Source of the DNA: an uncultured Acidobacteriota bacterium
GTDB lineage: Bacteria; Acidobacteriota; Thermoanaerobaculia; UBA5066; Gp7-AA6
Direction of reading: 5' to 3'
NCBI GenBank assembly: GCA_963825175.1
Contig: CAWGSA010000002.1
Coordinates: forward strand, 2,270,346-2,334,345
DNA: 64,000 nt
A program made the position numbers and the translations under genes. This document shows positions 12,242 through 42,489 of this stretch, piece after piece (the first letter of the stretch is position 1; each line of letters opens with the position of its first letter). Below the pieces are notes generated by a model. That model worked only from the letters and a program-made list of their open reading frames with translations. It ran no database searches and was not told the DNA's origin.

Positions 12242-12914
12242 TCAGTCCTTGCCCGAGGCCAGAAAGTCGCGCACGAGCTTCATGTCCTCCCACACGTCTT
12301 TCTTCTTGCTCCGGGGACCGCAGCAGGAACGCGGGATGGAACGTGGGCATGACCCGAACGCCGCGTGCGGTTCGCCAGCGCCCGCGGAGACGTCCGATCG
12401 GCTCGTCGGTCCCGAGCACGGCCTGGGCAGCGAAGGTTCCGAGCGTCACGATGGCCCTGGGCGAGATCAGACGGATCTGTTCCTCGAGAAATGGCATGCA
12501 CGAGGCCACTTCGTCCGGCTCCGGATTGCGGTTGTTGGGAGGGCGGCACTTCAGAACGTTGGCGATGTAGACCTCCTCGCGCTTCATCCCCATCGCCTCG
12601 ATGATCTTGGTGAGAAGCTGCCCCGCGCGGCCGACGAAAGCCAGACCTTGAATGTCCTCTTCGTGGCCCGGGGCCTCCCCCACGAACAGGAGGTCGGCGG
12701 TCGGGCTGCCTTGCCCGAACACGATGTGGGTCCGACCGCGCGAGAGCTTGCACCGCGGGCAGCCTTCCAGAAAGGCCCTCAGCGCGGGAAGATCCGGGAC
12801 CGACCCCGGCACGAGCGCGGGCACCTCGCAGCGCAAGGCGTCGAGAAAGAGATCACGCATCCCGAGGTCTCGGAAGAACTCGAGCTCGCCGCGGATTCCG
12901 TCGTCGCCGCTCAT
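12242..12914 (-). CDS. udg: Uracil-DNA glycosylase, family 4, with an apparent 1-nt frameshift near 12300
   Basis: Core motifs [46 protein letters not shown]. The expected C-terminus [21 protein letters not shown] is present but in the +1 frame, after an A/G run (gcaagaagaaag). The 532-aa track ORF 11403..13001 is the artefactual read-through. Confidence 0.7.
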
Positions 12915-12954
12915 CGACGGGTTTTGGGTGCCGCCGGTCCCCTGCCGGAAGACG

Positions 12955-14160
12955 TCAAGGCGCCGCTTCGCATTTGGCGCGCCGGACCTCCAGAAAAGCA
13001 TCCCAGATCTTCTCGGCGACCTCCCGCTTGGGACGGCGCGACACAGTCTCTGGCTCGCCGTGCCTCTTCAGAATGAGGACTTCGTTGTCCGCGGCATCGA
13101 AGCCGATACCGGTGCGGCCGATGTCGTTGACGACGATTAAGTCGGCCCCCTTTTCCTCCATCTTGCGGCGTCCGCGCTCTTCGAGGGAATCGGTCTCCGC
13201 GGCGAACGCGACGATGGTCTGTCCGCGCACGAGCGGGGCCAGCCCGGCCAGAAGGTCCCGTCCGGCGGCCAGGTGCAGGACGCGATCCCCATCCTGGCGG
13301 TGCAGGCGCTGCGCGCTGGACTCCGGGATGAAATCGGCGACGGCGGCGGCCATGACCAGGCCCTCGCACGTCGGGAACTCCTCGACCAGGAGGGCAGCGA
13401 GGTCGGCCGCCGTCTGGAAAGCGAGGAAGCGGACGCCGGCGGGACGGGCGAGCCCCGTCGGACCGGAGAGAAGGGTGACGCGCGCCCCGCGGTCTCGTGC
13501 GGCTTCGACCAGCGCGTATCCCATCCGCCCGCTGGACCGATTGGAGACGAAACGAATCGGATCGATGGGCTCGCGGGTCGGACCGGCGGTCACCAGCAGC
13601 GAGAGGCCGGCCAGGTCGCCGCGATCCGAGAGGAGGCGCCAGGCTTCGTCCAGGATGACGGCCGGCTCTTCCATCCGGCCCCGACCCTCGTGCCCGGACG
13701 CCAGGAAGCCCGAGGCCGGACCCACCAGGCGCACGCCTCTCTCCTGGAGCGTCGCTCGGTTGCGGACGACGGCCGCGTTCTCCCACATGGCGGTCTCCAT
13801 CGCCGGAGCCAGCAGGACGGGCTTGCGATGGGCGAGAAAATAGGTCGAGAGAAAGTCGTCAGCCAGTCCCTGCGCGAACTTGGCCATGGTGTGAGCCGTG
13901 GCGGGAGCCACCAGCAGCAGGTCCGCCCAGTCCGCCAGGGCCACGTGATCGACGGCGGGGCGATGGCCGTCGCCCCACACCTCCGTGTACACCTCGTGTC
14001 CGGACAAAACCGCGAAGGTGGCGGGGGCCACGAACTCCCGGGCGCCCCGCGTCATCGCGACCCGAACTTCGGCTCCGCGCTGGACAAGGCCGCGCAACAG
14101 CTCGGCCGCCTTGTAAGCGGCGATGCCGCCGGAGACGCCGAGAACGACGTGCGGGCTCAT
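12955..14160 (-). CDS. coaBC: Bifunctional phosphopantothenoylcysteine decarboxylase / phosphopantothenate-cysteine ligase
   Basis: N-terminal flavoprotein motif [19 protein letters not shown] and a C-terminal CoaB domain. 401 aa. Confidence 0.9.
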
Positions 14161-14235
14161 ACGGAGAGTTTCCGGCGACGAGCGCGGCGCCGCCGGCCCG
14201 GAACCGGGCGGGTGCCGCGAGCGCCGCGGACCGCG

Positions 14236-14496
14236 CTACACGCGGGCGGCTTCTTCCTCCGCAACTTCCTCGTCGCCTGTGTCCGAGACGGCCTCTTCCA
14301 GAATGCCGCCTTCGGGGCCGTAGTCCCAACGAACCCTGCTCTGGTCGAATTCGTCGGCCGCGAGCCGAACCGGCTTGGCCGGCCGGTCGGTCTCGACCTT
14401 GGGGCGAGCGCCGCGCATCAATTGCTCGGCCCTCCGGGCGATCAAGAGAACCAGGCGAAACTTGCTGTCGACCCCCTCGGGCATTTTCTGAATCAT
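14236..14496 (-). CDS. rpoZ: DNA-directed RNA polymerase subunit omega
   Basis: DSKFRLVLLIARRAEQL is the omega hallmark. 86 aa with an acidic tail, in the conserved gmk-rpoZ context. RBS GAGAGG. Confidence 0.85.
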   Translation of the reverse strand: MIQKMPEGVDSKFRLVLLIARRAEQLMRGARPKVETDRPAKPVRLAADEFDQSRVRWDYGPEGGILEEAVSDTGDEEVAEEEAARV

Positions 14497-14529
14497 CGGT
14501 TGAAAACCTCTCTGAACTGAGCTTTGAAC

Positions 14530-15156
14530 TTAGCGGAACTCGGACCGGATGCGCTGCAGACGTGTCCTCTGCCGGGCCGGCGTCAAGCGTCGAGCCCGGA
14601 CGATCGATTGTAACTCAAGAGTGGCTCGTTCGAGATCGTCATTGACGATAACATATTGAAACTCTTCGGCTTGCTGGATTTCTCTGGAGGCGTTGATCAG
14701 GCGCTTGCGGATGGCTTCCTCTCCGTCCAGGCCGCGCGACCGCAGCCGCCGGTCGAGCTCGACCGGCGAGGCGGGAACGATGAAGATTGTCACCGCCTCA
14801 GGGTAGCCGCGCAGCACGTCGCGGGCTCCCTGGACGTCGATATCGAGGATCACGTCCTCCCCGGAGGCCAGGCGGGGCAGGACCTCCGCCCGGGACGTTC
14901 CGTAGATGTTGTCGTGAACCTCGTTGTGCTCGAGGAATTCGTCGCGCTGGACCATCTTCTGAAACTCGGTCACGGAAACGAAGTGGTACTCCCGGCCGTC
15001 CTGCTCTCCCTGCCGCCGAGGACGGGTCGTGTGGGACACCGAGAAATGCAGCGGCGCGCCAGGAGGGTCCTCCAGCAGGCGGCGGATGAGCGTCGTCTTG
15101 CCTCCTCCCGACGGGGACGAGACGATGAAGAGATCTCCCCGGGTGACGTCGGTCAT
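14530..15156 (-). CDS. gmk: Guanylate kinase
   Basis: MTDVTRGDLFIVSSPSGGGKTTLIRRLL...HFSVSHTTRPRR..GREYHFV. ATG at 15154-15156. Only the last 208 aa of the 480-aa track ORF are real. Confidence 0.9.
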   Translation of the reverse strand: MTDVTRGDLFIVSSPSGGGKTTLIRRLLEDPPGAPLHFSVSHTTRPRRQGEQDGREYHFVSVTEFQKMVQRDEFLEHNEVHDNIYGTSRAEVLPRLASGEDVILDIDVQGARDVLRGYPEAVTIFIVPASPVELDRRLRSRGLDGEEAIRKRLINASREIQQAEEFQYVIVNDDLERATLELQSIVRARRLTPARQRTRLQRIRSEFR

Positions 15157-16025
15157 TCCACGTTTCCGATCTGCTCGCGGATCTTCTCCGTCTCCGATTT
15201 CATGTCGACGACGTCCCTGACCAGTTGGAGATCCCGAGCCTTGGAGCCCAGGGTGTTGAGCTCCCGCAGGATCTCCTGGGACAAGAAGTCGAGCTTCTTC
15301 CCGATCGGCTCGGCCGCGGACCGGGCCAGCTGAGCGAACTGTTCCAGGTGTCCCTGCAGGCGCTGCAGCTCCTCGGCGATGTCGGAACGGTCGGCCACCA
15401 GGGCCGCTTCCTGTTCCAGGCGGGCGGGGTCGACCGGGCCGTCGTTCCAGAGATCGCGGATCCGCTGACGGAGGTTCGCGTGCACCGCGCGGGTGATCTC
15501 GTCGCGCCGAGCCGAAAGCTCCGCGGTCTTCGCCTGCAGGCGCTCGATCCGTGCCGTGATGTCCTTCTCGATGCCGCGGCCTTCCAGCTCGCGCATGGCG
15601 ACGAGGGCGGCGGCGGCCTCCTCGGCCAGAGCCTCCAGGGCCGAGATCTCCGCCGGCGGGAAGTCGGCCACCGGGCTTTCGACCGCGAAGATCTGCGAGA
15701 TGGCCAGGACGTCGCGCGCCTCCAGGCTCCCGGCCACCGGGAGCTTCGCCGAAAGGCGCTCGAACCGGGACAGCACGGCGGCGAGCAGCTCCTCGTTCAA
15801 CGTGATCTCGTAGCCGGCGGTTCCGGTCCTCTTCAACCGGAGGGTCACGTCGACCTTGCCCCGTCCCAAACGGCGGGAGAAGACCCGTCTCAGCACCGGC
15901 TCGAGCGACGCCTCGGTCTCCCTCAACCGGACGGTCAGATCGAGCGAGCGGTGGTTGACGCTCTTGGCCCACACCTCCGCCTGGGCCTCCCCCACCGGCC
16001 CACTCGACCGGCCGAACCCGGTCAT
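15153..16025 (-). CDS. yicC: YicC-family stress-induced protein (endoribonuclease YicC-like)
   Basis: MTGFGRSSGPVGEAQAEVWAKSVNHRSLDLTVRL.. and a C-terminal DUF1732-like region. It overlaps the gmk start (ATGA), the conserved yicC-gmk-rpoZ block. Confidence 0.85.
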   Translation of the reverse strand: MTGFGRSSGPVGEAQAEVWAKSVNHRSLDLTVRLRETEASLEPVLRRVFSRRLGRGKVDVTLRLKRTGTAGYEITLNEELLAAVLSRFERLSAKLPVAGSLEARDVLAISQIFAVESPVADFPPAEISALEALAEEAAAALVAMRELEGRGIEKDITARIERLQAKTAELSARRDEITRAVHANLRQRIRDLWNDGPVDPARLEQEAALVADRSDIAEELQRLQGHLEQFAQLARSAAEPIGKKLDFLSQEILRELNTLGSKARDLQLVRDVVDMKSETEKIREQIGNVE

Positions 16026-16036
16026 GCTTCGAAGGC

Positions 16037-17899
16037 TCAGGCCGGCGTCTCCCGGACCAGGTCGTTGTCGGTGAAGAACTGCATCTCGTGAAGCCTGCGG
16101 TACAGGCCGGGGCGAGTCAAGAGCTCGTCGTGCGTTCCGGACTCCACGATCCGGCCGGCGTCCAGGACCACGATGCGATCGGCCCGCCGCACGGTCGAGA
16201 GCCGATGGGCGATGACCAGCGTCGTGCGCCCGCGCATCAGGTTGCGCAGCGCCCGGGCCACCAGCATCTCGGATTCGGTGTCCAGCTGCGACGTGGCTTC
16301 GTCCAGGATCAGGATCGGCGCTCCCTTGTAGATCGCGCGGGCGATCGCCAGGCGCTGCTTCTGGCCTCCGGACAGGCGTCCGGCGTCCTCCCCCACCCGG
16401 GTGTCGTATTTGTCGGGCAGTCGCTCCACGAACTCGTCGACGTACGCCGCGCGCGCCGCCTCCCGCATCTTCTCCTCGGGCGGAGACGTCTGCCCGTAGG
16501 CGATGTTTTCCCGGATCGTGGAGTCGAAGAGGATCGTGTCCTGCGTCACCAGGCCGATCTGGCCGCGCAGGGACGGCAGGGTGGCGTCGCGCAGGTCCAC
16601 GCCGTCGAAGGTAATGCGCCCGGCCTCGGGGTCATAGAAGCGCGGCAGCAGATTGACCAGGGTCGTCTTGCCCGCGCCGGACGGCCCGACCAACGCGACC
16701 GTTTCGCCCGACCGGATGGTCAAGGAGATCCCGCGCAGGACCTCCTCGCGCCCATACCCAAACAGGACGCCCTCGTAGCGGAGAGCATCGCGAAACGGGG
16801 GAAGCGCAATCGCTCCGGGTGACTCGACGATTTCATTCTCACGGTCGATGACTTCGAACACCCGTCGGGCCGACGAGAGGGCGAGTTGGATGGCGATGTT
16901 GATGCGGGTGACGTCCTTCAATGGCTTGTACATCATCATGAGCGCGGTGAGGAACGAGAAGAGATCGCCCACCCGCATCCGCCCGCCATGGATCTGCCCG
17001 GCGGCGTAGATGAAGAGAGCGGACAGGCCGATGCCCGAGAGCGTCTCCATGAACGGGGCATTCAAGGCCTGCAGCCGGATCGTGCGGCGGTTCACGCGGA
17101 AGTACCGATCGTTGCTCTGGTCGAACCGGCGCGCTTCGAACGGCTCCATGGCGTAGGCCTTGATGACGCGGTGCCCCCGCAGCGTCTCGGAGAGGAGGGC
17201 TCCCATCTCCCCGATCCGCTCCCGCGCGGCGGTGGCGGCGCGGCCCAGCCGGCGCGTATTGTTGATGATCGGCAGCAGGATGATGGGGGCCAGCGCGAAG
17301 ACGATCACCGCGAGACGGGCGTTCAACGAAAAGACGTAGACGAGCACCAGGAGCAGCGTCAATCCTCCCTGCACCAGGTCCGTCAGGTTGTGGCCGAACG
17401 TCGTCTGGATCTGCTCGACGTCGGAAAGCATTCGGGAGAGCAGATCGCCGGTCGACGTCTCCGAGTAGAACCGGGTGGACTGCCCCAGGAGGCGGTTGTA
17501 CGCGTCCCGTCGCAGGTCCCGCACCATGGCCACCCCGATGCCGTTCAATTCGAATTCGGACAGATAGGAAAAGAGATTCTTCGACACCAGCGCCAGGAGC
17601 AGAAGCAGCGGCGCACCCCACGCCACGGAGACTCCGCGGCGCTGCGCCGCCGCGCATCCCGCGGCGTAGGCCTGATCCAGCCACCGCAGCAACGGCGCGG
17701 CCCGGGACGACGCGGACCTTCCCATGCCGGCCAGGCTCCGTGCCGTGGTGCCCGCTCCGAGCGCGTCATCGATGACCTTCCCGAAGAGAAAGAGCATCGC
17801 CACGGTCGAGAGCGAGACGATCCCCATGGCCACCAGCGCGGCGAGCGCCCGCCACCTGTAGCGCGCAAAGTACTTCAGAAGGCGAGGCAGCGGTTTCAT
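16037..17899 (-). CDS. msbA: ABC transporter permease/ATPase, MsbA-like lipid exporter
   Basis: Six-TM N-terminal domain, then Walker A GPSGAGKTT, signature LSGGQKQRLAIARA, Walker B ILILDEATS. It is adjacent to and overlaps lpxB. Confidence 0.8.
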   Translation of the reverse strand: MKPLPRLLKYFARYRWRALAALVAMGIVSLSTVAMLFLFGKVIDDALGAGTTARSLAGMGRSASSRAAPLLRWLDQAYAAGCAAAQRRGVSVAWGAPLLLLLALVSKNLFSYLSEFELNGIGVAMVRDLRRDAYNRLLGQSTRFYSETSTGDLLSRMLSDVEQIQTTFGHNLTDLVQGGLTLLLVLVYVFSLNARLAVIVFALAPIILLPIINNTRRLGRAATAARERIGEMGALLSETLRGHRVIKAYAMEPFEARRFDQSNDRYFRVNRRTIRLQALNAPFMETLSGIGLSALFIYAAGQIHGGRMRVGDLFSFLTALMMMYKPLKDVTRINIAIQLALSSARRVFEVIDRENEIVESPGAIALPPFRDALRYEGVLFGYGREEVLRGISLTIRSGETVALVGPSGAGKTTLVNLLPRFYDPEAGRITFDGVDLRDATLPSLRGQIGLVTQDTILFDSTIRENIAYGQTSPPEEKMREAARAAYVDEFVERLPDKYDTRVGEDAGRLSGGQKQRLAIARAIYKGAPILILDEATSQLDTESEMLVARALRNLMRGRTTLVIAHRLSTVRRADRIVVLDAGRIVESGTHDELLTRPGLYRRLHEMQFFTDNDLVRETPA

Positions 17900-19041
17900 G
17901 GAGTCCGTGCGGCGGCCGAGGAGGGAGAAGGCTCGAGATCGGCCACTGCGTCCAGGATCGCCGCCGCCGCTCGATCCGACGCGCCCGGCGGTCCCAGCTC
18001 CCGGGCCACGCGCTCGAGGCCCCGTCGCATGGCCTCCCGGCGCGGTGCCGAGGAGAGGAGCGTCTCCGCTTCGCGCTCCAGGCGATCCGCCGAGACCTCG
18101 TTCTGCAGCAGCTCGGGAACGATCTCCTCCTGGGCCACGATGTTGACGAGCGAGATCCAGGGAACCCGGACCAGGAGCTTGCCGACGGCGAAGCTCGCGG
18201 GGGAAGTCCGGTATACCACGATCATCGGGGCGCCGCAGAGCGCGGCTTCGAGCGTCGCCGTTCCCGACGCCACCAGAGCGAGGTCGGCCGAGGCCAGGAT
18301 CGGGTGCATTCCGGAGTCGACGACCCGGATTCCCCGCTGCGTCGCGTCGCCGAACAGGGTTTCCGAGACGCCGGCCGCACGGACCGCGACGACTTCGAGG
18401 TCGAACCGGGCCGCGAGTCGCTGCGCCGCCCGCGCCATCGGCTCCCAGTGCCGCCGCAATTCCGCCGTGCGGCTGCCCGGGAGCAGAACGAGCCGTCGTC
18501 TCGTCTTCTCCGGCAGCGGCGAGGGCCGGGCCAGGCCCTCACGGACGTCGTCGACGAGAGGATGCCCGGCGCAAATCGCGTCCGCCCCCAGGCGGCGGTA
18601 GATGTCCGCCTCGAACGGAAAGAGCGTGATGATCCTCCTGGCCCTTCGGGCGATGCGCCGGGCGCGTCCACGGCGCCAGGCCCATACCTGCGGGCTCACG
18701 TAGTAGATCAGCGGCACGCCCCTGCGTTGGAGCCGTCGCGCGAGGAAACCGTGGAAGTCGGGAAAGTCGATCAGCACCGCGGCATCCGGTCGGCGTCGGG
18801 CTGCGGCCCGGATCAGACCGCGAAGGGCGCCGACGAGCCCCGAAAGCTTCTCCAGGACCTCGGAGACTCCGACGACCGACAGGCCCTCCGACCGAACCAC
18901 CGTGTCGAGCCCCTCGGCCGCGAGCCGCGCTCCGCCCATCCCGAAGGCGGCGAGATCCGGCCGGCGCCGCCTCAGGGCAGCCAGCAGGCGCGAGCCGAGC
19001 AGATCGCCGGAAGCTTCGCCGGCGGAGAAAAGCAAGTACAA
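17896..19041 (-). CDS. lpxB: Lipid-A-disaccharide synthase
   Basis: MYLLFSAGEASGDLLGSRLLAAL...LIYYVSPQVWAWR is typical LpxB. Confidence 0.85.
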   Translation of the reverse strand: MYLLFSAGEASGDLLGSRLLAALRRRRPDLAAFGMGGARLAAEGLDTVVRSEGLSVVGVSEVLEKLSGLVGALRGLIRAAARRRPDAAVLIDFPDFHGFLARRLQRRGVPLIYYVSPQVWAWRRGRARRIARRARRIITLFPFEADIYRRLGADAICAGHPLVDDVREGLARPSPLPEKTRRRLVLLPGSRTAELRRHWEPMARAAQRLAARFDLEVVAVRAAGVSETLFGDATQRGIRVVDSGMHPILASADLALVASGTATLEAALCGAPMIVVYRTSPASFAVGKLLVRVPWISLVNIVAQEEIVPELLQNEVSADRLEREAETLLSSAPRREAMRRGLERVARELGPPGASDRAAAAILDAVADLEPSPSSAAARTP

Positions 19042-19227
19042 TCGCTTCCAATTAAATCAAATGCACCAGTCATCCCCGCCGCCGGTCGGGTCTACTGACC
19101 GGGACAGCGCCGGCGCGGGGAGAAGACGCGCCTCCGATGGCCGAAGCCGTTCTCCGTCTCAAGGAAACCGCATCGCGCCGCTGGACGGACGAATGGTCAT
19201 GACCGGGTCCATCCCAGGCGGCTCCCC

Positions 19228-20301
19228 GTGGCGATGAAGGCCTCGCTGGTGGGCTGCGGCCGGATCGGAGCCCGCCACGCCGCTCTGCTGGCGGGCTCGC
19301 CGGAGACGGAGCTGGCGGCCTGCGTGGACACGGAACCGGCTCGGGCCGAGGACTTCGCGCAGCGGCACAGCGCCCGGGCCTACGCGGACCTCGCGACGAT
19401 GGTCGCCGCCGAGTCCCCCGACCTGGTGGCGATCTGTACTCCCTCCGGACTCCACGCGGAGCATGTCGAGGCGTCGGCCCGCGCCGGCGTGCCCAACATC
19501 ATCGTCGAGAAACCCATGGCGCTCACTCTTGCCGACGCGGACCGGATGATCCAGGTGTGCGATACGGCAGGAGCGAGGCTCTTCGTGGTGCAGCAGAACC
19601 GGTACAACCTTCCGATCCAGAAGCTGCGGGATGCGGTCGATCAGGGGCGCTTCGGAAGGCTGGTTCTGGGCACCGTCCGCGTTCGGTGGTGCCGCCGGCA
19701 GGACTACTACGACCAGGCCGCCTGGCGCGGGACGTGGGCCATGGACGGCGGGGTCTTTTCCAATCAGGCCTCGCACCATATCGACATGCTGCTCTTCATG
19801 ATGGGACCGGTCGAGTCCGTCTTTGCGGCGGGCGCGACGCGCCTGGTCGACATCGAGGCGGAGGACACCGGCGTCGCCTTGTTGAAGTTCCGAAGCGGCG
19901 CCCTGGGCATCGTCGAGGCGACGACGGCGGCCAGGCCCGTGGACCTGGAGGGTTCGATCTCGATTCTTGGCGAGAACGGCACGGTCGAAGTGGGCGGCTT
20001 CGCCATGAACGAGATGAAAGTCTGGCGCTTCGCCGAAACCTTGCCCGAGGACGAAGGCGTTCTGGAGCGCTTTCGAACCAATCCGCCGGACGTCTACGGG
20101 TTCGGCCACCACGCCTTCTATCGAGACGTCTTCGCGTCGATCGCGACCGGCCACGGCACCACGGTGGACGGCCTCGAAGGGCGCCGCTCGCTGGAAGCGA
20201 TCACCGCGATCTACGAGTCGGTCGAAAGTCGGCAAGAGATCCAGCTTCCTTTCACCCCAAGGGCGTGCCGGCTGGGCATTCCGTCGGGTCCCCGGGCATG
20301 A
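19228..20301 (+). CDS. Gfo/Idh/MocA-family NAD(P)-dependent oxidoreductase (GnnA/WbpB-like UDP-sugar 3-dehydrogenase candidate)
   Basis: Rossmann N-terminus MKASLVGCGRIGARHAALLA with the family core. It overlaps the downstream DegT aminotransferase and is divergent from lpxB. Confidence 0.75.
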   Translation: MAMKASLVGCGRIGARHAALLAGSPETELAACVDTEPARAEDFAQRHSARAYADLATMVAAESPDLVAICTPSGLHAEHVEASARAGVPNIIVEKPMALTLADADRMIQVCDTAGARLFVVQQNRYNLPIQKLRDAVDQGRFGRLVLGTVRVRWCRRQDYYDQAAWRGTWAMDGGVFSNQASHHIDMLLFMMGPVESVFAAGATRLVDIEAEDTGVALLKFRSGALGIVEATTAARPVDLEGSISILGENGTVEVGGFAMNEMKVWRFAETLPEDEGVLERFRTNPPDVYGFGHHAFYRDVFASIATGHGTTVDGLEGRRSLEAITAIYESVESRQEIQLPFTPRACRLGIPSGPRA

Positions 20302-21410
20302 TTCCCCTCTCCCGCGCAACGGTGACGCCGGAAATGAAGCAGGCGATGCTCGACGTCGTCGACTCGGGGGTCTTCATCCTCGGCCCCGAGACGCGGGCCT
20401 TCGAGCAGGAGTTTGCCCGATCCATCGGCGTGCGCCATGCCGTGGCCGTCTCGCAGGGGACGTCCGCCATCCAGCTCTCTCTCCTGGCCATCGGGGTCCG
20501 CCCCGGCGACGAGGTGCTGGTTCCCGCGATGACCGCCTTCCCCACGATCGAAGGGATCGTGCACGCCGGTGCCACGCCGGTGTTCGCGGATATCGACGCC
20601 TTCGGCGCCATCGACCCCGGCGACGCGGCCAGGCGCCTGTCCCCGCGCACAATCGGGATCCTGCCGGTGCACCTGTACGGAGGCTCCGCCGACCTGCAGG
20701 CCCTGGCGTCGCTGGCCGCGGACCACAATCTCTGGATTGTGGAGGACTGCTGCCAGGCCCATGGAGCCCGGTTCCGGGAGAAGGCCGTGGGCGCGGTCGG
20801 CCGGGCCGGCTGCTTTTCCTTCTATCCTTCGAAGAACCTGACGGTCTTCGGCGACGGCGGCATGGTCACCACCGACGAGGACGCGATCGCGGACCGCGTG
20901 CGGCTCCTGCGCGACCACGGGCGGATCGACAAGTCCACCCATGCCGTCGTTGGCTTCAACCTGCGCTTCAACGAGATCCAGGCGGCGGTGGGGCGAAGGC
21001 AGCTTGCGCTGCTGGAGGAGTTCGTCGCGCGGCGGCGCCGGATCGCAGGGCGGTACGACGAAAGCCTCAACGAGATCGCGGGCGTCGGCATCCCTCGCGA
21101 ACGGCCCGGCACGCGGATGTCTTACCACCTCTACCCCATTGCGCTCGACAGCGAAACCACGCGGGACGGACTGCGGGATCACCTGAAGCGCCGGGGAATC
21201 GAGACCGGTATCCACTACCCGATCCCCAATCATCTCCAGCCGGCGATGTCGCAACGCGGCCACCCTCCGTCGCTGCCGGCGTCGGAAACCCTGGCCAAGA
21301 CGACCCTCTCCTTGCCGATGTTTCCAGGTCTCTCGGACGAAGACGTCGAGACGGTGATCGGCGCGATCGCCGAGTGTTTCGGCCAGGGCGCCGCTCTCAA
21401 GGCGCCGTAG
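20298..21410 (+). CDS. DegT/DnrJ/EryC1/StrS-family PLP aminotransferase (GnnB/WbpE-like)
   Basis: PSKNLTVFGDGGMVTTDE (PLP-lysine region), FNLRFNEIQAAVG, HYPIP. The ATG at 20298 overlaps the upstream stop. The 617-aa track ORF 19557..21410 is an over-extension. Confidence 0.8.
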   Translation: MIPLSRATVTPEMKQAMLDVVDSGVFILGPETRAFEQEFARSIGVRHAVAVSQGTSAIQLSLLAIGVRPGDEVLVPAMTAFPTIEGIVHAGATPVFADIDAFGAIDPGDAARRLSPRTIGILPVHLYGGSADLQALASLAADHNLWIVEDCCQAHGARFREKAVGAVGRAGCFSFYPSKNLTVFGDGGMVTTDEDAIADRVRLLRDHGRIDKSTHAVVGFNLRFNEIQAAVGRRQLALLEEFVARRRRIAGRYDESLNEIAGVGIPRERPGTRMSYHLYPIALDSETTRDGLRDHLKRRGIETGIHYPIPNHLQPAMSQRGHPPSLPASETLAKTTLSLPMFPGLSDEDVETVIGAIAECFGQGAALKAP

Positions 21411-23271: not shown

Positions 23272-23273
23272 GA

Positions 23274-24442: not shown

Positions 24443-24444
24443 GG

Positions 24445-29037: not shown

Positions 29038-29038
29038 T

Positions 29039-29850: not shown

Positions 29851-29854
29851 CGCC

Positions 29855-31519: not shown

Positions 31520-31583
31520 GCGACGGGACTATATCGGAATGGGCCGGTTTCGGGCAGAAGCCGCGATCCGCCAGCACGAGGAT

Positions 31584-32200
31584 CTACTTCGCGGACGCCT
31601 CGTCGCGCACGTCGGGCAACTTCAGGGTCCGCCGCAAGGCCCGGAAATACTGAACGGGCTCCTCCCGCCAGGCCTTCTCCTCGATGGAGGCCGGGAACCG
31701 GCCGCCGAGCTCGCCCAGATACGTGTACGTCACACGGCACCGGTTGTCGCGCAGCGGCTCGACGAGCGTCTCGCCCGAGACCTTTTCGATCCGGACTCCT
31801 TCGTGCGGGTCCCCGGGTTTGGCGTCGGCTTCCCACGAAAGCACGAACCGTCCTCCCTCCTCGCTCCGGCCGCGGTAACGGATCACCGCGTCGCGGTTGC
31901 GCAGCGGAAAGGGGTACGGCCATACGACGTGAAGCCGCGCCGCGGCGTCCCGCTCCTCCAGGACCCGAGCGGTCTTCAGGGCCGGGGCGAAGATCTGTTT
32001 GTATCTTCCGTAGTCGGTCAACACCCGTTCCACCGCCGTGGACGGGGTGGCCAGCTCCGCCGATCCCCGCACCCATGGGGCGGAACCGGGCATCCGCGCG
32101 ATCTCGACCTTCACCCCCCTCGAAACGAACCAGCTCTCGAAGCGCGAGCCGGCCGGGGCCCCCGCCAGGCCGAGGAGAAACGGGAGGACCGCCAGGACGC
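31584..32200 (-). CDS. SRPBCC/START-like (polyketide cyclase fold) probable secreted or lipoprotein
   Basis: RVLTDYGRYKQIFAPALKTARVLEERD..RLHVVWPYPFPLRNRDAVIRY..VSGETLVEP..CRVTYTY fits the Bet v1-like fold. A hydrophobic leader VLSVLAVLPFLLGLAGAPAGS lies upstream. The start codon is unresolved. Confidence 0.45.
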
Positions 32201-32620
32201 TCAGGACGCCCGCCGCGCGAGAAGAAGGAGCGCCACCGACGCCGCCACCAGGACCAGATCTTCGGCCACCGTCCCCCAACCGAGGGGGCGCGCCAGGAAG
32301 ACGCCGAAGCAGCCGCAGTTGGCCAGCTTCAAGCCCCGCTCGATCGCCGCGGCGGACCAGGTCGCATAAGCCAGGTGCGCGGCCGTCGAGGTGAGCGCCG
32401 ACGCCACCAGCGCCCGGCCGCTGAAGAGCCACATCGCCAGCACGAGCTCCGCGATGGGGATCAAGACGGCGAGCGGCCGAAGAGACGCCTCCGGAAGAGC
32501 CCGGTATGTCCCGAGCACGCGAGCGAAGCCGCCGACGTCGAGCAGTTTCCCGACGGCCGTGGCGAGCAGGATCACCCCAATCGCCACCCGCAGGAATGCC
32601 GCCGCTCGCCTCCTCCCCAT
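32201..32620 (-). CDS. MauE/DoxX-like small membrane protein
   Basis: Four TM helices with CGCFG (LANCGCFGVF), typical of the MauE/DoxX family. Confidence 0.5.
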   Translation of the reverse strand: MGRRRAAAFLRVAIGVILLATAVGKLLDVGGFARVLGTYRALPEASLRPLAVLIPIAELVLAMWLFSGRALVASALTSTAAHLAYATWSAAAIERGLKLANCGCFGVFLARPLGWGTVAEDLVLVAASVALLLLARRAS

Positions 32621-32677
32621 GTCAGTCCGGCTCGAGCGCCCGCCGCGCGGCGAGATCCCGATTAACCCCGAGCCGCG

Positions 32678-33439: not shown

Positions 33440-33455
33440 GGCTCTCCTCGCTGGA

Positions 33456-34718: not shown

Positions 34719-34873
34719 CGCCCCTCCTCATCCTCCAAAATGGTCAGAACCGGTGGACCGGACCGGGTTGCTCTTCGGAGATCATACGGGAAACGGATGT
34801 GCATGGATCTCGAGGCTTTTGCCGCTCGCCGGTCCCCGTGGGACCGCGCCGGGGCCCCTCGGGCCTTGCGGGC

Positions 34874-34899
34874 GAAACCTCCGGCCTCCCCCGACGTCT
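34874..34899 (+). promoter_or_regulatory. Candidate ECF-type promoter GAAAC-N16-CGTCT upstream of the ECF sigma gene (autoregulation)
   Basis: The -35 AAC and -10 CGTC core with 16-nt spacing is characteristic of group IV sigma promoters. It lies about 25 nt upstream of the ATG at 34924. Confidence 0.4.
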
Positions 34900-34923
34900 C
34901 CCTCTTTGCCGTGCCGAGCGGAC

Positions 34924-35509
34924 GATGATGAGGCCGGGAGCGGGAGCGGAGGACCGGGCGCTCCTCGAGCGGGTCCGCCGTGGCGACACGGACGGAGCGG
35001 CGGAGCTCTTCGACCGCTACGCCCCGGCCCTGTTGCGCTTCGCGGACCGTCTCCTGTCGGACCGGAGCACGGCGGAAGAGGTGACCCAGGAGGTCTTCGT
35101 CAAGGTGATATCCCGAGCCCATCAATACGACGGCCGCGCGGAAGTGGCCTCCTGGCTCTTCGCCATCGCCGCCAACGCCTGCCGGGACCGACGGCGGCGC
35201 GACCGCCGGGCCACGGTTGTGCCGCTCGACGCCGTCGCGGAGCCGGCGGACGCCCCGAAGGGAGAGGGGGTTCTGGGCCGTATGGTGGAGCGCGAGAAGC
35301 GCGATGCCGTCCGCCAGGCCCTCGCGCTCCTCTCGGAGGAACAGCGGGAGGCCCTCATCCTGGCGCGCTACCAGGGACTCCCCTATGCCGAGATCGCCCG
35401 CATCCTCGGGATCTCGGTTGGAGCGGTCAAGACACGCATCTTCCGGGCCGTCGAGACGCTCAAGGCCCGTTTCTCGGAAGGAGAAGCCTCATGGAATGCC
35501 GCGAATTGA
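34924..35509 (+). CDS. ECF (group IV) RNA polymerase sigma-70 factor
   Basis: Region 2 LLERVRRGDTDGAAELFDRYAPALLRFA..EEVTQEVFVKV and region 4 YQGLPYAEIARILGISVGAVKTRIFRA. The true ATG is at 34924, inside the longer track ORF. Confidence 0.85.
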
Positions 35510-36417
35510 TCGAACGCGCGGTCGGGCTGTGGACGGGCGAGCTGGATGAGCCCGACCGAAGGGAGCTCGAGCAGCACCGCCTCTCCTGCTCCGCCTGCCG
35601 GCTGGAGCTCTCGAGACTGGAAGAGACCTGGGCCGCGCTGCTCGCCGATCCGGACGCCGACGTCACGGCCGACTTGCGCCGGCGCACACTCGAGCTGATG
35701 GAGGACGAGATGACGCGCCGGCGCATCCGCGCCTTCCGGCCTCGCCGGCGCTGGATGGGTCCGGTGGCGCAAGCAGCCGCGGTCCTTTTGGCGGCGGGAG
35801 CGGGTTGGCTGGCTCACCGGCCGGCTGCACCGGCCCCGACGCCGGTCCTCGGAGCCGCCGCCTCGACGCCGGGTCCGGCTTCGGGCGTTTTGTCCAACGT
35901 CTCCTACCGGCCCACCGACCAGCAGGGGAAGGTCGCCGTCTCTTTCGACGTGACCTCGCACCAGACGGTCGTGGGACGACCCGAGGACCCGGCGATGACC
36001 AACCTCCTCGCCTATCTCGTCTCGCGGGGAGCCCAGACCTCCGGAGAGAAATCCCAGGCCATCGAGCTCGTCTCCTCCCACTACGGGACGGGGACCGCGC
36101 CGGTCTCGCCCGAGATCGTCCGCGCGCTGACCGTGACCCTGAAGAAGGATCAGAACCCGGGCGTGCGCAAGAAGGCGGCCGATGCGCTGGCCGGCTTTCC
36201 CGTCACGGCGGAGATCCGCGCGGCGTTCCTCGACGCGCTCCAGACCGATCGCAACCCGGCCGTGCGGCTGGTCGCCGTCGACGCGCTGGCCGCGGCGGCC
36301 AAGCAATCCCCCGATCCGCGCACGATCGAGTCGCTGCGGGAAAAGGCGTCGGATCCCTCGGAGAACGGCTTCGTCCGCGCCAAGGCGGCGTCGGCCCTGA
36401 AGGGGATGGAGTTTTGA
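35491..36417 (+). CDS. Anti-sigma factor (ZAS-type zinc finger, one TM) with C-terminal HEAT/PBS-lyase repeats
   Basis: HRLSCSACRLELSRLEE (HxxxCxxC), TM MGPVAQAAAVLLAAGAGWLA, then repeated ...NPGVRKKAADALAG..DRNPAVRLVAVDALA..ENGFVRAKAASAL. It overlaps the sigma gene by 19 nt. Confidence 0.7.
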   Translation: MECRELIERAVGLWTGELDEPDRRELEQHRLSCSACRLELSRLEETWAALLADPDADVTADLRRRTLELMEDEMTRRRIRAFRPRRRWMGPVAQAAAVLLAAGAGWLAHRPAAPAPTPVLGAAASTPGPASGVLSNVSYRPTDQQGKVAVSFDVTSHQTVVGRPEDPAMTNLLAYLVSRGAQTSGEKSQAIELVSSHYGTGTAPVSPEIVRALTVTLKKDQNPGVRKKAADALAGFPVTAEIRAAFLDALQTDRNPAVRLVAVDALAAAAKQSPDPRTIESLREKASDPSENGFVRAKAASALKGMEF

Positions 36418-36447
36418 GGTCCTGCGATTCGGGAACGGAGTAACTTC

Positions 36448-38430
36448 GTGAGCACCGTCGCGTCTCTCTCGACGATGAAGATCCAAACGACTCCGCGCGG
36501 GCAGGCCGCATCCGACCGCCCGGCCCTCTGGCTCGCGCTCCTGGCGGGTCTCATCCTGATGGCCATCGCCGCCGCGGCCCGCTCCGAGGTCGGAGGCTTC
36601 CAGGCCCGGCGGACCGAGAACTTCACTGCGACGCTCGCTTCCGGCGCGACGCTCAAGGTCGAGAACGTCTCCGGGGACATCGTGGCAAAGCCGGGCCGCG
36701 CGTTTGCGGCCGTCGTCACCATCGTGGTGACAGCGCCGACTCAGAAGGAAGCCGAGGAGCTCCTGTCCGCCACGCGCGTCACCCAGTCGCGGGAAGGAGA
36801 CGACGTTTCCCTGGAAACACACTGGCCGGGATCGGACGAACGGCACGTTCGGGGATCGCGCTCCTGGGTCACGCGCCAGATCCACCCGCTGCCGTGCCGG
36901 CAGTGCCGCATCACGGCTCAGTACGAGCTGACCGTTCCGCCTGGAATCCGGACGGCGCTCAACAACGTCAACGGCGACGTCCGGGCCGACGATCTCGACG
37001 CCGACCTGAGCCTCCAGACGGTCAATGGCGCCGTGTCCGTGCGCGGGGCGCGCCGGTCGGTCACCGCCCACAGCGTCAACGGCAAGGTGAATCTCGTTTC
37101 CCGGAGTCTTCCGCCGGCGGCGCGGATCGACCTCAAGACCGTCAACGGCGCGGTGCTCGCGACCCTGCCCCGCGAGGCGAAGTTCCAGCTGTCGGCTTCG
37201 TCCATGAACGGGGTCATCGCGTCCACCTTCGCATTGCCCCCGCGCGCCGAGACCGACGCCGACGAGGTCATCGCTCCGCGGCCGGTCGTGGCGCCGAATC
37301 CTCCCCGCACGCCCAGGGCCCCGCGCCGGATCGTCATCGAGAAGGACGGCGACGAAGACGACGTGGTGGTCGACTTGAAGGAGCTCGAGAAAGAGCTCGA
37401 GGAATCGATGCGCGAGGTCGACGTGGAGGTGCAGAGAAACGTCCGGGGAGTCGACCGCCAGGTGCGCCGGATGCGGATTCTTCCCGGAGGCGACTACACC
37501 GGCTCGATCGGGCAGGGCGGAGCGGCCGTGCACGCGTCGACGTTGAACGGCTCGATCACCGTGCTCGCCAGTGGCACCGTCGAAAACGAGGCGAAGGTCC
37601 TGGTGTCCCCCCGGCGGTCATTCTCCGTCGAGGTGCCGCGCGTGCCGATGCCGCACGTCGAGGTGAGGATTCCTCGGATCGAAGTGAGGGCTCCGCGCGC
37701 CATCATTCCGCGCACGCTCGTCCGGGTCGAGTCCGGCCTGCCGGGAGCGGAGGACGAAGTGGTGCGGGGCGACGTGGCCGGCGACTTTCTGGCCACTTCC
37801 GGCAGCGGAAGCTATCGGATCGGAAACGTGACGGGCCGGGTGAAGGTCCTGACCCAGGCCGGCGAGATTCATGTCGGCTCCATCGGCGCAGGCGCCGAGC
37901 TGAAGACCTACGGGGGCGACATCACGATCGGGCCGGTCCATGGAGACCTGAAGGCTCTGACCATGGCCGGCGACGTGCATGCCGGCGCCGTCACGGGCTC
38001 CGCGACGGTCGACACGTCCGGCGGCGACGTCCGCATCGAGCGCATCGGCGGAGCGGCCGACGTCCGCACCGGAGGCGGGGACATCGTGCTGCCGGCGGTG
38101 GCCGGAGCCGTCGAAGCCCACAGCAGCGGCGGCGACGTCCGCGTGGATCTCGTCTCGCGGGATCCCCGGGGTCCCATCGTGATCCACAACGGCGGCGGGG
38201 ACGTGACCCTGACCCTGCCTCGCGACATGCGCGCGGACGTCGAGCTCGACGTGACCGATTGCGGCGACCCGGGGGACAGTTTCATACGATCGGACTTTCC
38301 CGAAATCTCGGTGCTGCGGCGCAGCGACTCGGCCCACGCTTCGGGCGCCTTGAACGGCGGCGGCACCCGCGTCCTCGTGCGCACCAGCTCCGGAACGATC
38401 CGCATCCGCAAGGGGCCGGCCTCGCAATAG
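36448..38430 (+). CDS. DUF4097-type (putative adhesin / beta-helix repeat) protein with N-terminal TM anchor
   Basis: Many repeats of (T/S)xNGxV, (S/T)GGDV, GDV..R..G across 660 aa. The third-position GC bias supports this frame over the antisense ORFs. This is a common third gene of ECF/anti-sigma modules. Confidence 0.6.
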   Translation: MSTVASLSTMKIQTTPRGQAASDRPALWLALLAGLILMAIAAAARSEVGGFQARRTENFTATLASGATLKVENVSGDIVAKPGRAFAAVVTIVVTAPTQKEAEELLSATRVTQSREGDDVSLETHWPGSDERHVRGSRSWVTRQIHPLPCRQCRITAQYELTVPPGIRTALNNVNGDVRADDLDADLSLQTVNGAVSVRGARRSVTAHSVNGKVNLVSRSLPPAARIDLKTVNGAVLATLPREAKFQLSASSMNGVIASTFALPPRAETDADEVIAPRPVVAPNPPRTPRAPRRIVIEKDGDEDDVVVDLKELEKELEESMREVDVEVQRNVRGVDRQVRRMRILPGGDYTGSIGQGGAAVHASTLNGSITVLASGTVENEAKVLVSPRRSFSVEVPRVPMPHVEVRIPRIEVRAPRAIIPRTLVRVESGLPGAEDEVVRGDVAGDFLATSGSGSYRIGNVTGRVKVLTQAGEIHVGSIGAGAELKTYGGDITIGPVHGDLKALTMAGDVHAGAVTGSATVDTSGGDVRIERIGGAADVRTGGGDIVLPAVAGAVEAHSSGGDVRVDLVSRDPRGPIVIHNGGGDVTLTLPRDMRADVELDVTDCGDPGDSFIRSDFPEISVLRRSDSAHASGALNGGGTRVLVRTSSGTIRIRKGPASQ

Positions 38431-38502
38431 CCTGGGACAGGCCCTGCGCCCGATCCCGTCACCAGCGCCAAACCCGACCGGCACGCTCTGAGGCCCGATT
38501 CC

Positions 38503-38520
38503 GGGTCCGCGGGGTCCGCG
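38503..38520. repeat. Tandem 9-mer (GGGTCCGCG)x2 between convergent genes
   Basis: ccgggtccgcggggtccgcggacgg lies in the 95-nt gap between the DUF4097 stop and the epimerase stop. Confidence 0.4.
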
Positions 38521-38525
38521 GACGG

Positions 38526-39518
38526 CTACCGGATCCTCAGGACCTTGACCGGCTCGAGGTCGACTTCCCGGCCCAGGCCGAACCTGGGATCGTGCCTCAT
38601 CGCTCCGTGCAGAGATTCGCGCAAACCGGGGCGCAGCGCGATCCAGTCTTCGCCGAACACGCGAACGGTGTCCGAGAGATCGGCCGCGTTGTCGCGCGAA
38701 AGGCTCCGGAGCTGGTCTCGCGTCAGAGGAGGATCGGGGATCCAGCCGCGGCGCGCCATCCACTCGAAGCACGATGCCAGGATCGCGCCCCACCAGAGCG
38801 GGAGGTGGAGCAGCGGCTTGCGGGGCCTGCCAACCGCGATCGCGATCTCCCGATAGACGTCGTTCAACGCGAGCGTGGCCGGACCGCCGACCTCGAAGGT
38901 CCGGCCGACCGTCTCCGGCTTCTCCAGCGCGTCGGCGAAGACCCGAGCCACGTCATAGATCGAGACGGGCTGAAACCGGGTCGTGCCGGGCCCGATCACG
39001 GGAATGAAGCCGGGGTTGCTCCGCACGATTCCGGCCAGCAGCGAGAAGAAGCCGTCCCCGGGCCCGAAGATGATCGAGGGACGGAAGATCGTCCAATCCA
39101 GACCCGACTCCCGGACAGCCTTTTCGCCGGCGGCCTTGCTCCGGCTGTATGCGGAGAGAGAGTCGGGCGAGGTTCCCATCGCGCTCATGTGCAGGAGGCG
39201 ACGGACGCCGGCCGAATCCATCGCCGCGATCACGTTGGCGACCCCTTCGTGGTGGACCCGCTCGAACGTCTGACCGCCGTCCTCGTGGATGATGCCGACC
39301 AGGTGCACGACCGCCTCCTGCCCGAGGACGGCTGAAGCGAGCGAGCGCGGGTCGAGGACGTTGCCCGATCGGCTCTGGACGGGCCGGTTGTAGCGGTTGC
39401 GCGTCGCGGCCTCCCCGCGCGCCAGGACCGCCACGGCGTGACCGCGCCGCAGCAGGGCGTTGACCAGATGCGTCCCGACGAACCCGGTGCCACCGGTGAC
39501 GAGGATTTTCAATTCCAC
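38526..39518 (-). CDS. NAD(P)-dependent epimerase/dehydratase-family (NmrA/CIA30-like) protein
   Basis: MELKILVTGGTGFVGTHLVNALLRRGH.. Rossmann GxxGxxG. 330 aa. Confidence 0.75.
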   Translation of the reverse strand: MELKILVTGGTGFVGTHLVNALLRRGHAVAVLARGEAATRNRYNRPVQSRSGNVLDPRSLASAVLGQEAVVHLVGIIHEDGGQTFERVHHEGVANVIAAMDSAGVRRLLHMSAMGTSPDSLSAYSRSKAAGEKAVRESGLDWTIFRPSIIFGPGDGFFSLLAGIVRSNPGFIPVIGPGTTRFQPVSIYDVARVFADALEKPETVGRTFEVGGPATLALNDVYREIAIAVGRPRKPLLHLPLWWGAILASCFEWMARRGWIPDPPLTRDQLRSLSRDNAADLSDTVRVFGEDWIALRPGLRESLHGAMRHDPRFGLGREVDLEPVKVLRIR

Positions 39519-39574
39519 CTCCGTTCGGCTCTATTTACCATGTCTCGTTCAGGTCGACCCTTGCGCTCCAGTGC

Positions 39575-39662
39575 GAGACGGGGGACAGGCCGACGGGGGG
39601 ACAGGGGGGGAACTCCCGCTCTCGGTCTCACCCCGTCTGCCCATCACCCCGTCACCCCGTCC
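39575..39662. repeat. Inverted tandem-repeat element: (GACGGGGGACAG)x2-type units, 19-nt core, (CACCCCGT(C))x3
   Basis: It spans from the epimerase start to the recG stop. The last recG codons and the stop lie inside the right array. Confidence 0.65.
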
Positions 39663-41665
39663 TCCCCCCGGGCCACCCGAACAGATCGCTCGCGATCCTC
39701 TCTCCTCTGCCCATCCTCTCGATGACCGCGCCCCTCGCCTGCGCCAGACGGGCCAGATCGCGCACCGGATCGGCCACGCGCATGTCGGCAAGCCCCGACT
39801 GTCTCTGCCCGAGGAGATCGCCCGGACCGCGGGTCTCCAGGTCCTTCTCCGCGATGACAAAGCCGTCGGAGGTCTCCTCCAGGATCGCCAGGCGCCGGCG
39901 GGCCTCCTCTCCGGCCTTCTCTCCGACAATCAGCGCGCACCACGACCGCCGCAAGCCGCGTCCGACGCGACCCCGCAGCTGGTGGAGCTGAGCCAAGCCG
40001 AAGACCTCGGCGTTCTCCACGATCATCAGGGTTGCCTCGGACACGTCGACACCGACCTCGACCACCGTGGTGGCCACCAGGATGCCGATGTCCCCGGCGG
40101 CAAAGGCGGCCAGCACGCGAGCGCGGTCTTCGGGCGGCATCCGGCCGTGCAGCGTCCCGATGGCGGCGCGCGGAGCGAGAGCGGCGATCCGGACGGCCGT
40201 CTCCCGCGTGGCAGCGACCTCACGCTCCCCCTCCTCGATGGCCGGAACGACCACGTACACGCGCTCCCCGGCGGCCACCCGCTCGGCGGCGAACCGATAG
40301 ACCTTCTCGCGAGACCGCTCCTCCCGGATGCGCGTCACGATCGTCGAGCGCCCGGGAGGCTTTTCGTCGAGGATCGACACGTCGAGCTCCCCGTAGACGG
40401 CCCACGCCAGGGACCGCGGGATGGGCGTCGCGGTCATGACCAGCACGTGGGGGCTCGTGCCCTTGCCGAAGAGCCGCGCTCGGTGCGCCACGCCGAACCG
40501 ATGCTGCTCGTCGACGACCACCAGCGCCAGGTCGCGAAACGCAACGGGGCTCTCGATCAGGGCGTGCGTTCCCACCAGGACGTCGATCTCCCCGGCGGCG
40601 AGCGCCGACAGGAGCGCGCGCCGCGGGGCGCCCCGCACGCGGCCGGTCAGGAGGCCCATCCGAACGCCGCCTTTCTCCAACCAGGAAGCCAGGCTCGCCG
40701 CGTGCTGCTCGGCCAGGATCTCGGTCGGCGCCATCAGCGCCGCTTGCGCTCCATTCTTCGCCGCGAGCAAAAGGGCCAGTCCCGCGACCACCGTCTTTCC
40801 GCTTCCGACATCGCCCTGGAGCAGCCGGGCCATGGCGCGGCCCGAAGACAGGTCCGCCGAGATCTCTCGCAAGGCGCGTTTTTGGGCGCCGGTGAGGCGG
40901 AACGGGAGAATGGTCCGGGCCAATGCGCGCACACCTTCGTCGGCAGCGAGCACGCGGCCAGACCGCTTGCGGAGCCGCGCCCTCTTTTCCTCGATCCCCG
41001 CGGCGAGCACGGTGAGCTCTTCTCCCGCCAGAACGCGCCGGGCGGATTCGGCCTCTTCCAGAGTCCCGGGAAAATGAGCCCGCTCGAGCGCGGCGCGGAT
41101 GGCCAGCGGATCGGCGCTCGCCGTCTCGAAGTCGGCCGTCAGCCCGTCCAGGGCCCGGCGCGCCAACGACCTCCAGACGCGAGGGGCCATTCCCGCCACG
41201 CGGTGGTAGACGCCGACGATTCTTCCCGAGTGGAGGGGATCGGCCTCCTCTCCCGGCAGGACCACTTCGGTCTCCGGGTTCTCCAGCCGCAGCTCTCCGC
41301 GGGGCGTCACGGCCGGATCTCCATAGAGGATCACGGGCCGGCCCGAGCGCAGGGCCTCGGCGAAGGACGGATAGCGGTTGTGCCAGACCACGCGCGTGGA
41401 TCCCGTGTCGTCGCTGGCGATCCCCTCGATCCGCAGCAGACCCCGCCGCATGCGGGCGCTCTGCACGCCGGTGACGCGCACGAGCAGCGTCTGCGGCCTG
41501 CCCCGCGGAGAGCGCCGCCACGGTGCCGTAGCGGCTTCGGTCCTCGTACCGGAAAGGCAGGCGCAGCAGGAAGTCGCCGACGGTCTGGATCCCCTCGTGC
41601 TCCAGCCGGGAGGCGCGGGCCGGACCCAGACCGGGCACCCGCGAGACCGGTTCGCGCGGACTCAC
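39652..41665 (-). CDS. recG: ATP-dependent DNA helicase RecG, with an apparent 1-nt frameshift near 41502 (CCCC/GGGG run)
   Basis: The N-terminal 51 aa (GIQTVGDFLLRLPFRYEDRSRYGTVAAL) are in the frame of track ORF 40220..41665. The wedge and helicase body (TLLVRVTGVQSARMRRG..., GDVGSGKT, DEQHRFG, TATPIPRS) are in the frame of ORF 39652..41481. Removing one G from the gcgggg run restores a 671-aa RecG. Confidence 0.8.
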
Positions 41666-41702
41666 GCGGGCCGGGTCGAAGGCGCGCCGCGCCGCGCCCG
41701 CC

Positions 41703-42489
41703 TCACGCTCCCGTGTCGTAGAAGGTCAGCTGCACGAGGCCGAACTTGAGAGCGTCGCCGTTTTTGATCGAGGCGGGAGTCCCTGTGGCCAGCCGGGTCT
41801 CGTTGACGAACGTACCGTTCATCACGCCGATCTCTTCCATGACGTAGAAATGCCCGGCGAGCTGGTAGAGCTTCGCGTGCCGCCGCGACGTGGACCTCTG
41901 CGGATCGAGAGTCGAGAGGTCGACGTCCGGAGTGATGCCGGTCACCGGATCGGCGCGGCCCACCAGCGTGTCTCCCTCGCGGTTGAGGAAGAACTCCGCC
42001 TTCCCCTCCGGGGCCACGAGGCGGCACACGTCCCGCTCCGGCGCGGCGCGGCGCGGCGGCGGTTTCTCCTCCTCCGGGACCTGCCGGCCCAGCGACTCTT
42101 CCAGCATCGCGGTGACCTCGCGCAGCCTCCGAGAGAGCTTGCGCATCATGCGCACCGCGATCTCCGTGTTGCTCTTCAACATCGTGTCGAACATCGCGCC
42201 GTTAATTTTCACGAGCTCGACGTCCGTCTTGGCGCGGGCCGAAGCCGTGCGCGGGAAGATCTTCGAGAACGCTCATCTCGCCGAAGAAGTCTCCCTTCTC
42301 CAGGGTCGCCAGGACCCGCGTCTCGCCGGCGATCTGTTTGAAGAGCTCCACGATCCCCGCCTGGATGATGAACATCTCCGTGCCGATATCCCCCTCGGAG
42401 AAGATCATGTCCCCCATCGGGTGCGCCACGATGTAGCGCTCGAAGGGGTTCTTCCCTCCGGCCGGACCGGACTTGAAGACCGCCTTCAT
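41703..42489 (-). CDS. Cyclic-nucleotide-binding domain / FHA domain fusion protein, with an apparent 1-nt frameshift near 42254 (CCC run)
   Basis: cNMP domain (DMIFSEGDIGTEMFIIQAGIVELFKQ..TLEKGDFFGEMSVLEDL) in ORF 42202..42489. It continues in the -1 frame as PRTASARAKTDVELVKINGAMFDTMLKSNTEIAVRMMRKLSRRLRE, then the FHA domain (LVGRADPVTG..VSRRHAKL..NGTFVN). The start overlaps the ldcA stop. Confidence 0.65.

Follow-up and report, generated by a model that had tools for sequence, protein, structure and literature searches.

Single-base frame breaks in udg, recG and a cNMP/FHA gene of a Thermoanaerobaculia metagenome-assembled genome as probable consensus errors

Insertions and deletions (indels) in Nanopore consensus sequences lead to frameshifted gene calls, and bins below ~40x coverage need polishing with short reads (PMC9262707); in large Nanopore-only soil collections of metagenome-assembled genomes (MAGs), polishing consisted of one Medaka round only (PMC12313526). 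Other described systems in which a frame is interrupted by a change of one base include frameshift pseudogenes, phase-variable contingency loci and programmed ribosomal frameshifting. Here we compare with these systems a 64-kb stretch of DNA (hereafter the window) of about 68% G+C and ~60 protein-coding genes, most of them on the minus strand, in which three genes are broken: udg, encoding a family-4 uracil-DNA glycosylase (UDG), recG, encoding an ATP-dependent DNA helicase, and a gene encoding cNMP-binding and FHA domains (the cNMP/FHA gene). Each break consists of one surplus base in an otherwise open, well-conserved frame. The three breaks are probably consensus errors in a long-contig MAG and not real gene loss, with all three genes intact in the organism.

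Frame breaks and their placement

Frame changes were detected with a codon-usage scan trained on the long open reading frames (ORFs) of the window, followed by Pfam scans and three-frame translations. The main relative used for comparison was ERZ25039463:contig_52079 (3.2 Mb, ~80% amino-acid identity, fully syntenic), the closest among the long-contig relatives, from which stretches around recG (L001) and udg (L002), together 42 kb, were taken; two further relatives were JGI contigs, one of them based on short reads (L083) and compared over 8 kb. The independent same-strain comparison was made with the Logan assembly of run ERR12037362, in which a contig of 2,191 bp carries udg and one of 1,523 bp carries the S66 peptidase and cNMP/FHA genes, and it rests on protein sequence for udg and on gene coordinates and lengths for the cNMP/FHA gene. 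Frameshifts in the three genes had been claimed by a first-pass annotation of the window, and both the split Pfam domains and tblastn against the relative bear this out. All three sites lie on the minus strand, with one base too many at each (Table 1).

In the main frame of udg, the Pfam UDG domain covers profile positions 1-127 of 141, and three-frame translation places the conserved UDG C-terminus (the last ~20 amino acids) in a different frame; consistently, the relative's UDG divides between two frames at 12300-12307 in tblastn. With one base removed, the gene encodes a 252-amino-acid protein that matches the profile over positions 1-141 of 141. A search with this repaired UDG identified an intact UDG of 252 amino acids (P0121) on the 2,191-bp Logan contig. 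When all single-base deletions in the window copy of udg were tried, removal of base 12308 was the sole change that gave P0121 exactly (252/252 amino acids).

The cNMP/FHA gene is likewise divided, with cNMP_binding positions 4-61 on a first fragment of 95 amino acids that ends in a premature TAA, and positions 61-89 together with FHA on a second. Removal of one base yields a protein of 261 amino acids, the length of all six other members of the 90% cluster of the deposited 95-amino-acid fragment (P0263), with a contiguous cNMP_binding domain (4-89 of 89) followed by FHA. Two single-base removals are available at this site, and both encode the identical protein (Leu-Pro-Arg-Thr). The neighbouring LD-carboxypeptidase gene (Peptidase_S66) links this locus to the independent assembly: its product matches that on the 1,523-bp Logan contig over 309/309 amino acids, and the cNMP/FHA gene follows there with the same 4-nt overlap in a frame that runs without a stop through 105 codons, up to the end of the contig and past codon 96, at which the window copy stops. 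Because the flanking S66 peptidase and the repaired UDG are both identical, the same strain, or one indistinguishable from it over 561 amino acids, is present in a public read set, and two of the three breaks (udg and cNMP/FHA) are absent from its independent assembly.

In recG, the frame that encodes the N-terminal 55 amino acids (VSPREPVSRVPGLGPARA...YEDRSRYGTVAALSAG) differs from that of the wedge and helicase domains; the first 55 codons read PGLGPARA...LPFRYEDRSRYGTVAALSAG. The repaired protein (one base removed) has 670 amino acids, and RecG_wedge, beside the helicase domains, is detected only after the repair. Tblastn divides the relative's RecG between frames at 41502-41510. The gap falls at GCC[G]CAG when recG is aligned with L001 alone and at the G run in a three-way alignment, and homologues tolerate G-Q-A-Q as well as G-R-P-Q at the site; the extra base of recG therefore has no unique position. 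Searches for a same-strain RecG fragment with the 140-amino-acid N-terminus returned only relatives of at most 70% identity, and a RecG search of genome contigs returned distant homologues of at most 47% identity and no close relatives. We infer that the recG break follows the same pattern as the other two.

Table 1. Coordinates of the broken genes, of their extra bases and of the neighbouring anchor gene in the window.
Feature	Coordinates	Strand	Remarks
udg	12242..13001	minus	frame broken 20 codons ahead of the stop
udg, extra base	12308..12308	minus	C on the coding strand (G on the plus strand), GGAG[C]AAGAAG, outside any homopolymer
recG	39652..41665	minus	frame broken after codon ~55; deposited call is a 599-aa truncated product
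recG, extra-base interval	41494..41504	minus	coding strand GGGGCAGGCCG; candidates GGGG 41501-41504, CC 41495-41496, G 41494
cNMP/FHA gene	41703..42489	minus	broken at codon 79-80; premature TAA 42202-42204
cNMP/FHA gene, extra base	42252..42255	minus	coding strand CTTCCCGCGC; one C of CCC (42253-42255) or G at 42252
LD-carboxypeptidase (Peptidase_S66)	42486..43415	minus	intact; anchor for same-strain identification

Origin of the extra bases

The best protein matches of the window are from Thermoanaerobaculia (Acidobacteriota) MAGs. The truncated RecG is on record (P0001, 100% identity over 599 amino acids) from an NCBI/ENA contig of 2,934,016 bp, and the cNMP-binding fragment P0263 is an exact match recorded from that same contig; the frame breaks therefore belong to the deposited assembly, a long-contig MAG. 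Look-ups of the broken products found none on record in any assembly besides this source contig. The relatives (L001 and L002, L083 and the other JGI contig) have intact genes for products of 223 (udg), 261 (cNMP/FHA) and 674-685 amino acids (recG), and the identity to the syntenic relative is similar on the two sides of each break, at 82% and 81% for udg, 97% and 91% for the cNMP/FHA gene, and 67% and 82% for recG.

Breaks of the same kind were found in a sibling assembly, ERZ25039562:contig_15739 (L084, 3.43 Mb), of which positions 1-8594 hold at least four in 8.6 kb: in recG (~4486-4501), in an epimerase gene (~6034 and ~6300, thus read in three frames) and in a DnaJ/PatA_N gene. Short-read L083, by comparison, shows no frame break in 8 kb. 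Other truncated N-terminal RecG fragments with out-of-frame tails come from contigs of 0.48-3.4 Mb. The siblings belong to the ERZ250394xx-395xx series and carry Flye-style contig_N names, a naming shared with Nanopore-only MFD MAGs, which suggests that the window may belong to such a Nanopore-only soil MAG data set.

These observations are best explained by a window derived from a long-contig MAG of Thermoanaerobaculia whose consensus probably holds sporadic single-base insertion errors. Three such errors would have landed within coding regions, dividing udg, recG and the cNMP/FHA gene, all of which would be intact and functional in the organism. The pattern resembles what consensus calling or polishing leaves uncorrected at modest coverage, platform and coverage both being what we infer for this assembly. 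The extra bases of recG and the cNMP/FHA gene (41494-42255) lie ~750 bp apart in adjacent genes, and the surrounding ~29 kb has no further break; this cluster may point to a part of the assembly where coverage is low or strains are mixed. Error density also differs strongly between MAGs of the same series, with at least four breaks in 8.6 kb of L084 versus none in the 42 kb of L001 and L002.

Several points weigh against an origin by consensus error. The Logan contigs could come from a co-occurring strain and not from the MAG's own, and the same-strain comparison covers two of the three sites, udg and the cNMP/FHA gene. Three insertions and zero deletions, two of them ~750 bp apart, are unlike uniform random error, though n=3, and the closest sibling (L001 and L002) is free of breaks, such that the error rate would have to be uneven across the series. 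In addition, an exact look-up of the 105-amino-acid partial product predicted for the Logan copy of the cNMP/FHA gene did not find it, either because cut products are not stored or because the sequence differs somewhere; exact look-up of eight guesses at the product of a neighbouring Logan contig likewise found none.

The first-pass annotation had held that one base in a mononucleotide run restores each protein, and had favored homopolymer miscalling over real decay. Removal of one base does restore all three, and an artefact is supported by the intact same-strain udg and the open cNMP frame, but neither the placement in runs nor the homopolymer mechanism stood. Systematic miscalling of an A, a G and a C run by a pyrosequencing- or Nanopore-type platform has some points in its favour: the homopolymer indel is the classic error of Nanopore consensus sequences (PMC9262707), a GGGG (41501-41504) shortened by one base restores recG, whose gap the three-way alignment puts there, and a shortened CCC (42253-42255) restores the cNMP/FHA gene. 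At udg, however, the only deletion that reproduces P0121 removes a base flanked by G and A, eight bases from the proposed AAA run (12298-12300), and shortening that run yields EQEED where the observed protein has EKKKD, an exclusion that assumes a Logan strain without a single-nucleotide polymorphism at that codon. At the cNMP site, L001 and L083, the two relatives with DNA, both read CCC-CGN, which argues against placement in the C run and favours an inserted G interrupting CCCC (CCC[G]CGC) over a lengthened run; at recG the run remains one of several placements. The indel thus lies outside a mononucleotide run at udg and is ambiguous in this respect at the other two sites, where the candidate runs are a mere 3-4 nt. 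Nor were the longest runs struck first: the window holds 142 runs of at least 5 nt, 24 of at least 6 nt and five of 7 nt, and none of the 142 coincides with a detected frame break. The probability that a random 10-nt interval of the window contains a run of at least 3 is P=0.44, and the adjacency of the break sites to runs is therefore no better than chance. Moreover, Nanopore data more commonly under-call homopolymers (deletion), and the three events here are all insertions. We consider this explanation highly improbable; the sites are non-repetitive or very short-run and G+C-rich, and the breaks are not demonstrably homopolymer-length miscalls in the usual sense. A motif shared by the three sites, as might point to methylation-linked error, was limited to a trivial 'GCA' within 3 nt, and the idea was dropped.

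The breaks might instead be genuine alleles carried by the MAG's dominant strain, that is, recent inactivating insertions in a population where a strain with intact alleles coexists, possibly with deficient repair; the mutator background raised in the first-pass annotation is a version of this idea. They are present in the deposited consensus, two of the three genes struck serve DNA repair, the Logan contigs may come from other cells, and the two breaks 750 bp apart could share one haplotype. Downstream of every break, however, there is neither a second lesion nor excess divergence, and the flanking proteins match those of the assembly with intact alleles at 100% identity, such that three separate loci could have diverged only extremely recently. 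Lesions shared across samples or further decay, as expected of pseudogenes, were not seen. Repair and replication genes make up ~19% of coding length, and from the gene map two hits in three has P about 0.09; furthermore, loss of UDG or RecG does not cause single-base insertions, and in long-contig siblings breaks of this kind occur at different positions. Real alleles are hence unlikely, and the intact udg of ERR12037362 supports an artefact in place of a mutator. In its narrower form, the extra bases would mark a sub-lineage with very recent loss of UDG, RecG and the cNMP/FHA protein beside the otherwise identical intact lineage of ERR12037362, which we regard as decidedly unlikely; such a natural udg/recG double-deficient, DNA-repair-deficient strain, caught at divergence, would be mildly interesting. 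The breaks could also be bridged in vivo, through programmed +1 ribosomal frameshifting or transcriptional slippage that restores the full-length proteins. The cNMP site offers a zero-frame CCC followed by G, a quadruplet on which tRNA-Pro readily slips into the +1 frame, and a slip of this kind would produce precisely the conserved Leu-Pro-Arg-Thr. A slippery motif is missing from the udg (GAG-C) and recG sites, a separate signal would be needed in each of three unrelated genes, and neither the orthologues, which are single ORFs, nor the same-strain Logan assembly needs a frameshift; because this need is not conserved in orthologues, programmed frameshifting is effectively refuted, and its probability is negligible. 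Phase variation finds no substrate at the switch points either, as there is no homopolymer of at least 7-8 nt and no tandem repeat, the longest candidate run being 4 nt.

If consensus error is indeed the cause, such errors would break a frame about once per 20 kb in this MAG, and probably in further members of its accession series. The truncated calls (RecG of 599 and cNMP/FHA of 95 amino acids) may be misread as loss of DNA repair in pangenome or metabolic surveys, and correction or filtering confined to homopolymers would miss such errors, since some sit outside homopolymers. The value of the result is practical and not biological, as a quality warning for the assembly and its siblings. The original observation is partly confirmed and its interpretation partly supported; the breaks are no real biological feature.

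Other genes of the window

Other 1-nt errors had been thought probable, with the odd starts of uvrB, pth and the SRPBCC gene as candidates, an expectation that the remaining genes did not bear out. In tblastn of the relative's 40 proteins (L001 and L002) against the window, a frame split was seen only in UDG, cNMP/FHA and RecG, and the remaining 37 align in a single frame; ~20 other ORFs are matched by Pfam over their full length or, if no family matched, show no frame break. With these two approaches, no break was found elsewhere among the ~60 genes. Frame switches proposed by the codon-usage scan at gmk/yicC, msbA/lpxB, M50/SRPBCC/MauE, ECF sigma/HEAT, DUF4126/DnaJ, uvrB and its upstream ORF, L9/DUF2232, and ispE and its upstream neighbour are ordinary gene boundaries.

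The start of uvrB is a GTG at 52772, and its product of 691 amino acids equals the relative's protein in length. At pth (59957-59965, minus strand) there is no ATG, GTG or TTG at the expected start; the sequence TAG GGC CTG CAC GCC ATC GTC GGG corresponds to ..HAIVGLGNPG, the Pfam Pept_tRNA_hydro profile sets in at the fifth residue past the L25 stop codon, and the only candidate start is the CTG at 59959, which directly follows that stop. This CTG is either a case of CTG initiation or a substitution, real or erroneous. The SRPBCC gene (Polyketide_cyc2/START; 32201-32206, minus strand) is the second gene with a CTG at its start position, at 32206 within a CTGA overlap with the MauE stop, where the relative has ATGA (L001 19546); its next canonical in-frame start lies 75 codons upstream, within MauE. 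The CTG starts of pth and the SRPBCC gene are not indels. Directly upstream of pth, ribosomal protein L25/Ctc ends in a low-complexity Lys/Glu tail (KEKEKEKEKEKKEK*; 59966-60010, minus strand), which a GGAGAA-type repeat encodes.

Genes for a GFO/IDH/MocA oxidoreductase and a DegT/DnrJ/EryC1 aminotransferase occupy 19228-21410 (plus strand) between lpxB and asnB. In syntenic L002, lpxB and asnB are adjacent, and the ~2.3-kb sugar-modification insertion is therefore specific to this genome. Two tandem genes with N-terminal PatA_N/DUF4388 domains (45074-48523, minus strand), with DnaJ and TPR repeats joined to one of the two, lie between uvrC and DUF4126, a position that the pair holds in all relatives; the second has a poorly conserved C-terminal half, and only its residues 1-317 align with the relative. 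ARAGORN reported a 95-nt 'tRNA-Pro(ggg)' at 10307-10401 (minus strand) inside a class II fumarase/aspartase-like gene (9990-11372, plus strand), which is almost certainly a false positive; the tRNA-Gln at 61953-62028, upstream of prs, looks genuine.

Comparison with known systems

Like programmed +1 frameshifting of the prfB type, or CCC-N slippage by tRNA-Pro, a +1 shift would mend each frame, and the cNMP/FHA gene has CCC-G; the arrangement here differs in that it is not conserved, neither an in-frame stop nor a Shine-Dalgarno-like stimulator was seen, and a slippery sequence is absent from udg and recG. Phase-variable contingency loci, which switch by slipped-strand mispairing, share with this window the inactivation of a gene by a one-base length change, but the tracts here are at most 4 nt (with none at udg), the genes have housekeeping roles in place of surface or restriction functions, and relatives show no conserved tract.

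Frameshift pseudogenes of reductive or mutator lineages resemble the window in the broken frames of the DNA-repair genes udg and recG. They differ from it in that the genes considered here carry a single lesion without further decay and have intact neighbours (three of ~60 genes being affected), and in that the lesions are not common to the same-strain assembly or to any relative. Consensus indels in long-read MAGs, as measured with the length ratios of IDEEL (Sereika et al. 2022, PMC9262707), are classically tied to homopolymers, unlike the present breaks, of which one lies outside runs and the others at runs of at most 3-4 nt, all of them insertions. The likeness to these consensus indels extends to single-base indels in otherwise intact conserved genes, truncated calls that were deposited, breaks missing from an independent assembly, a very long contig and siblings that are affected alike.

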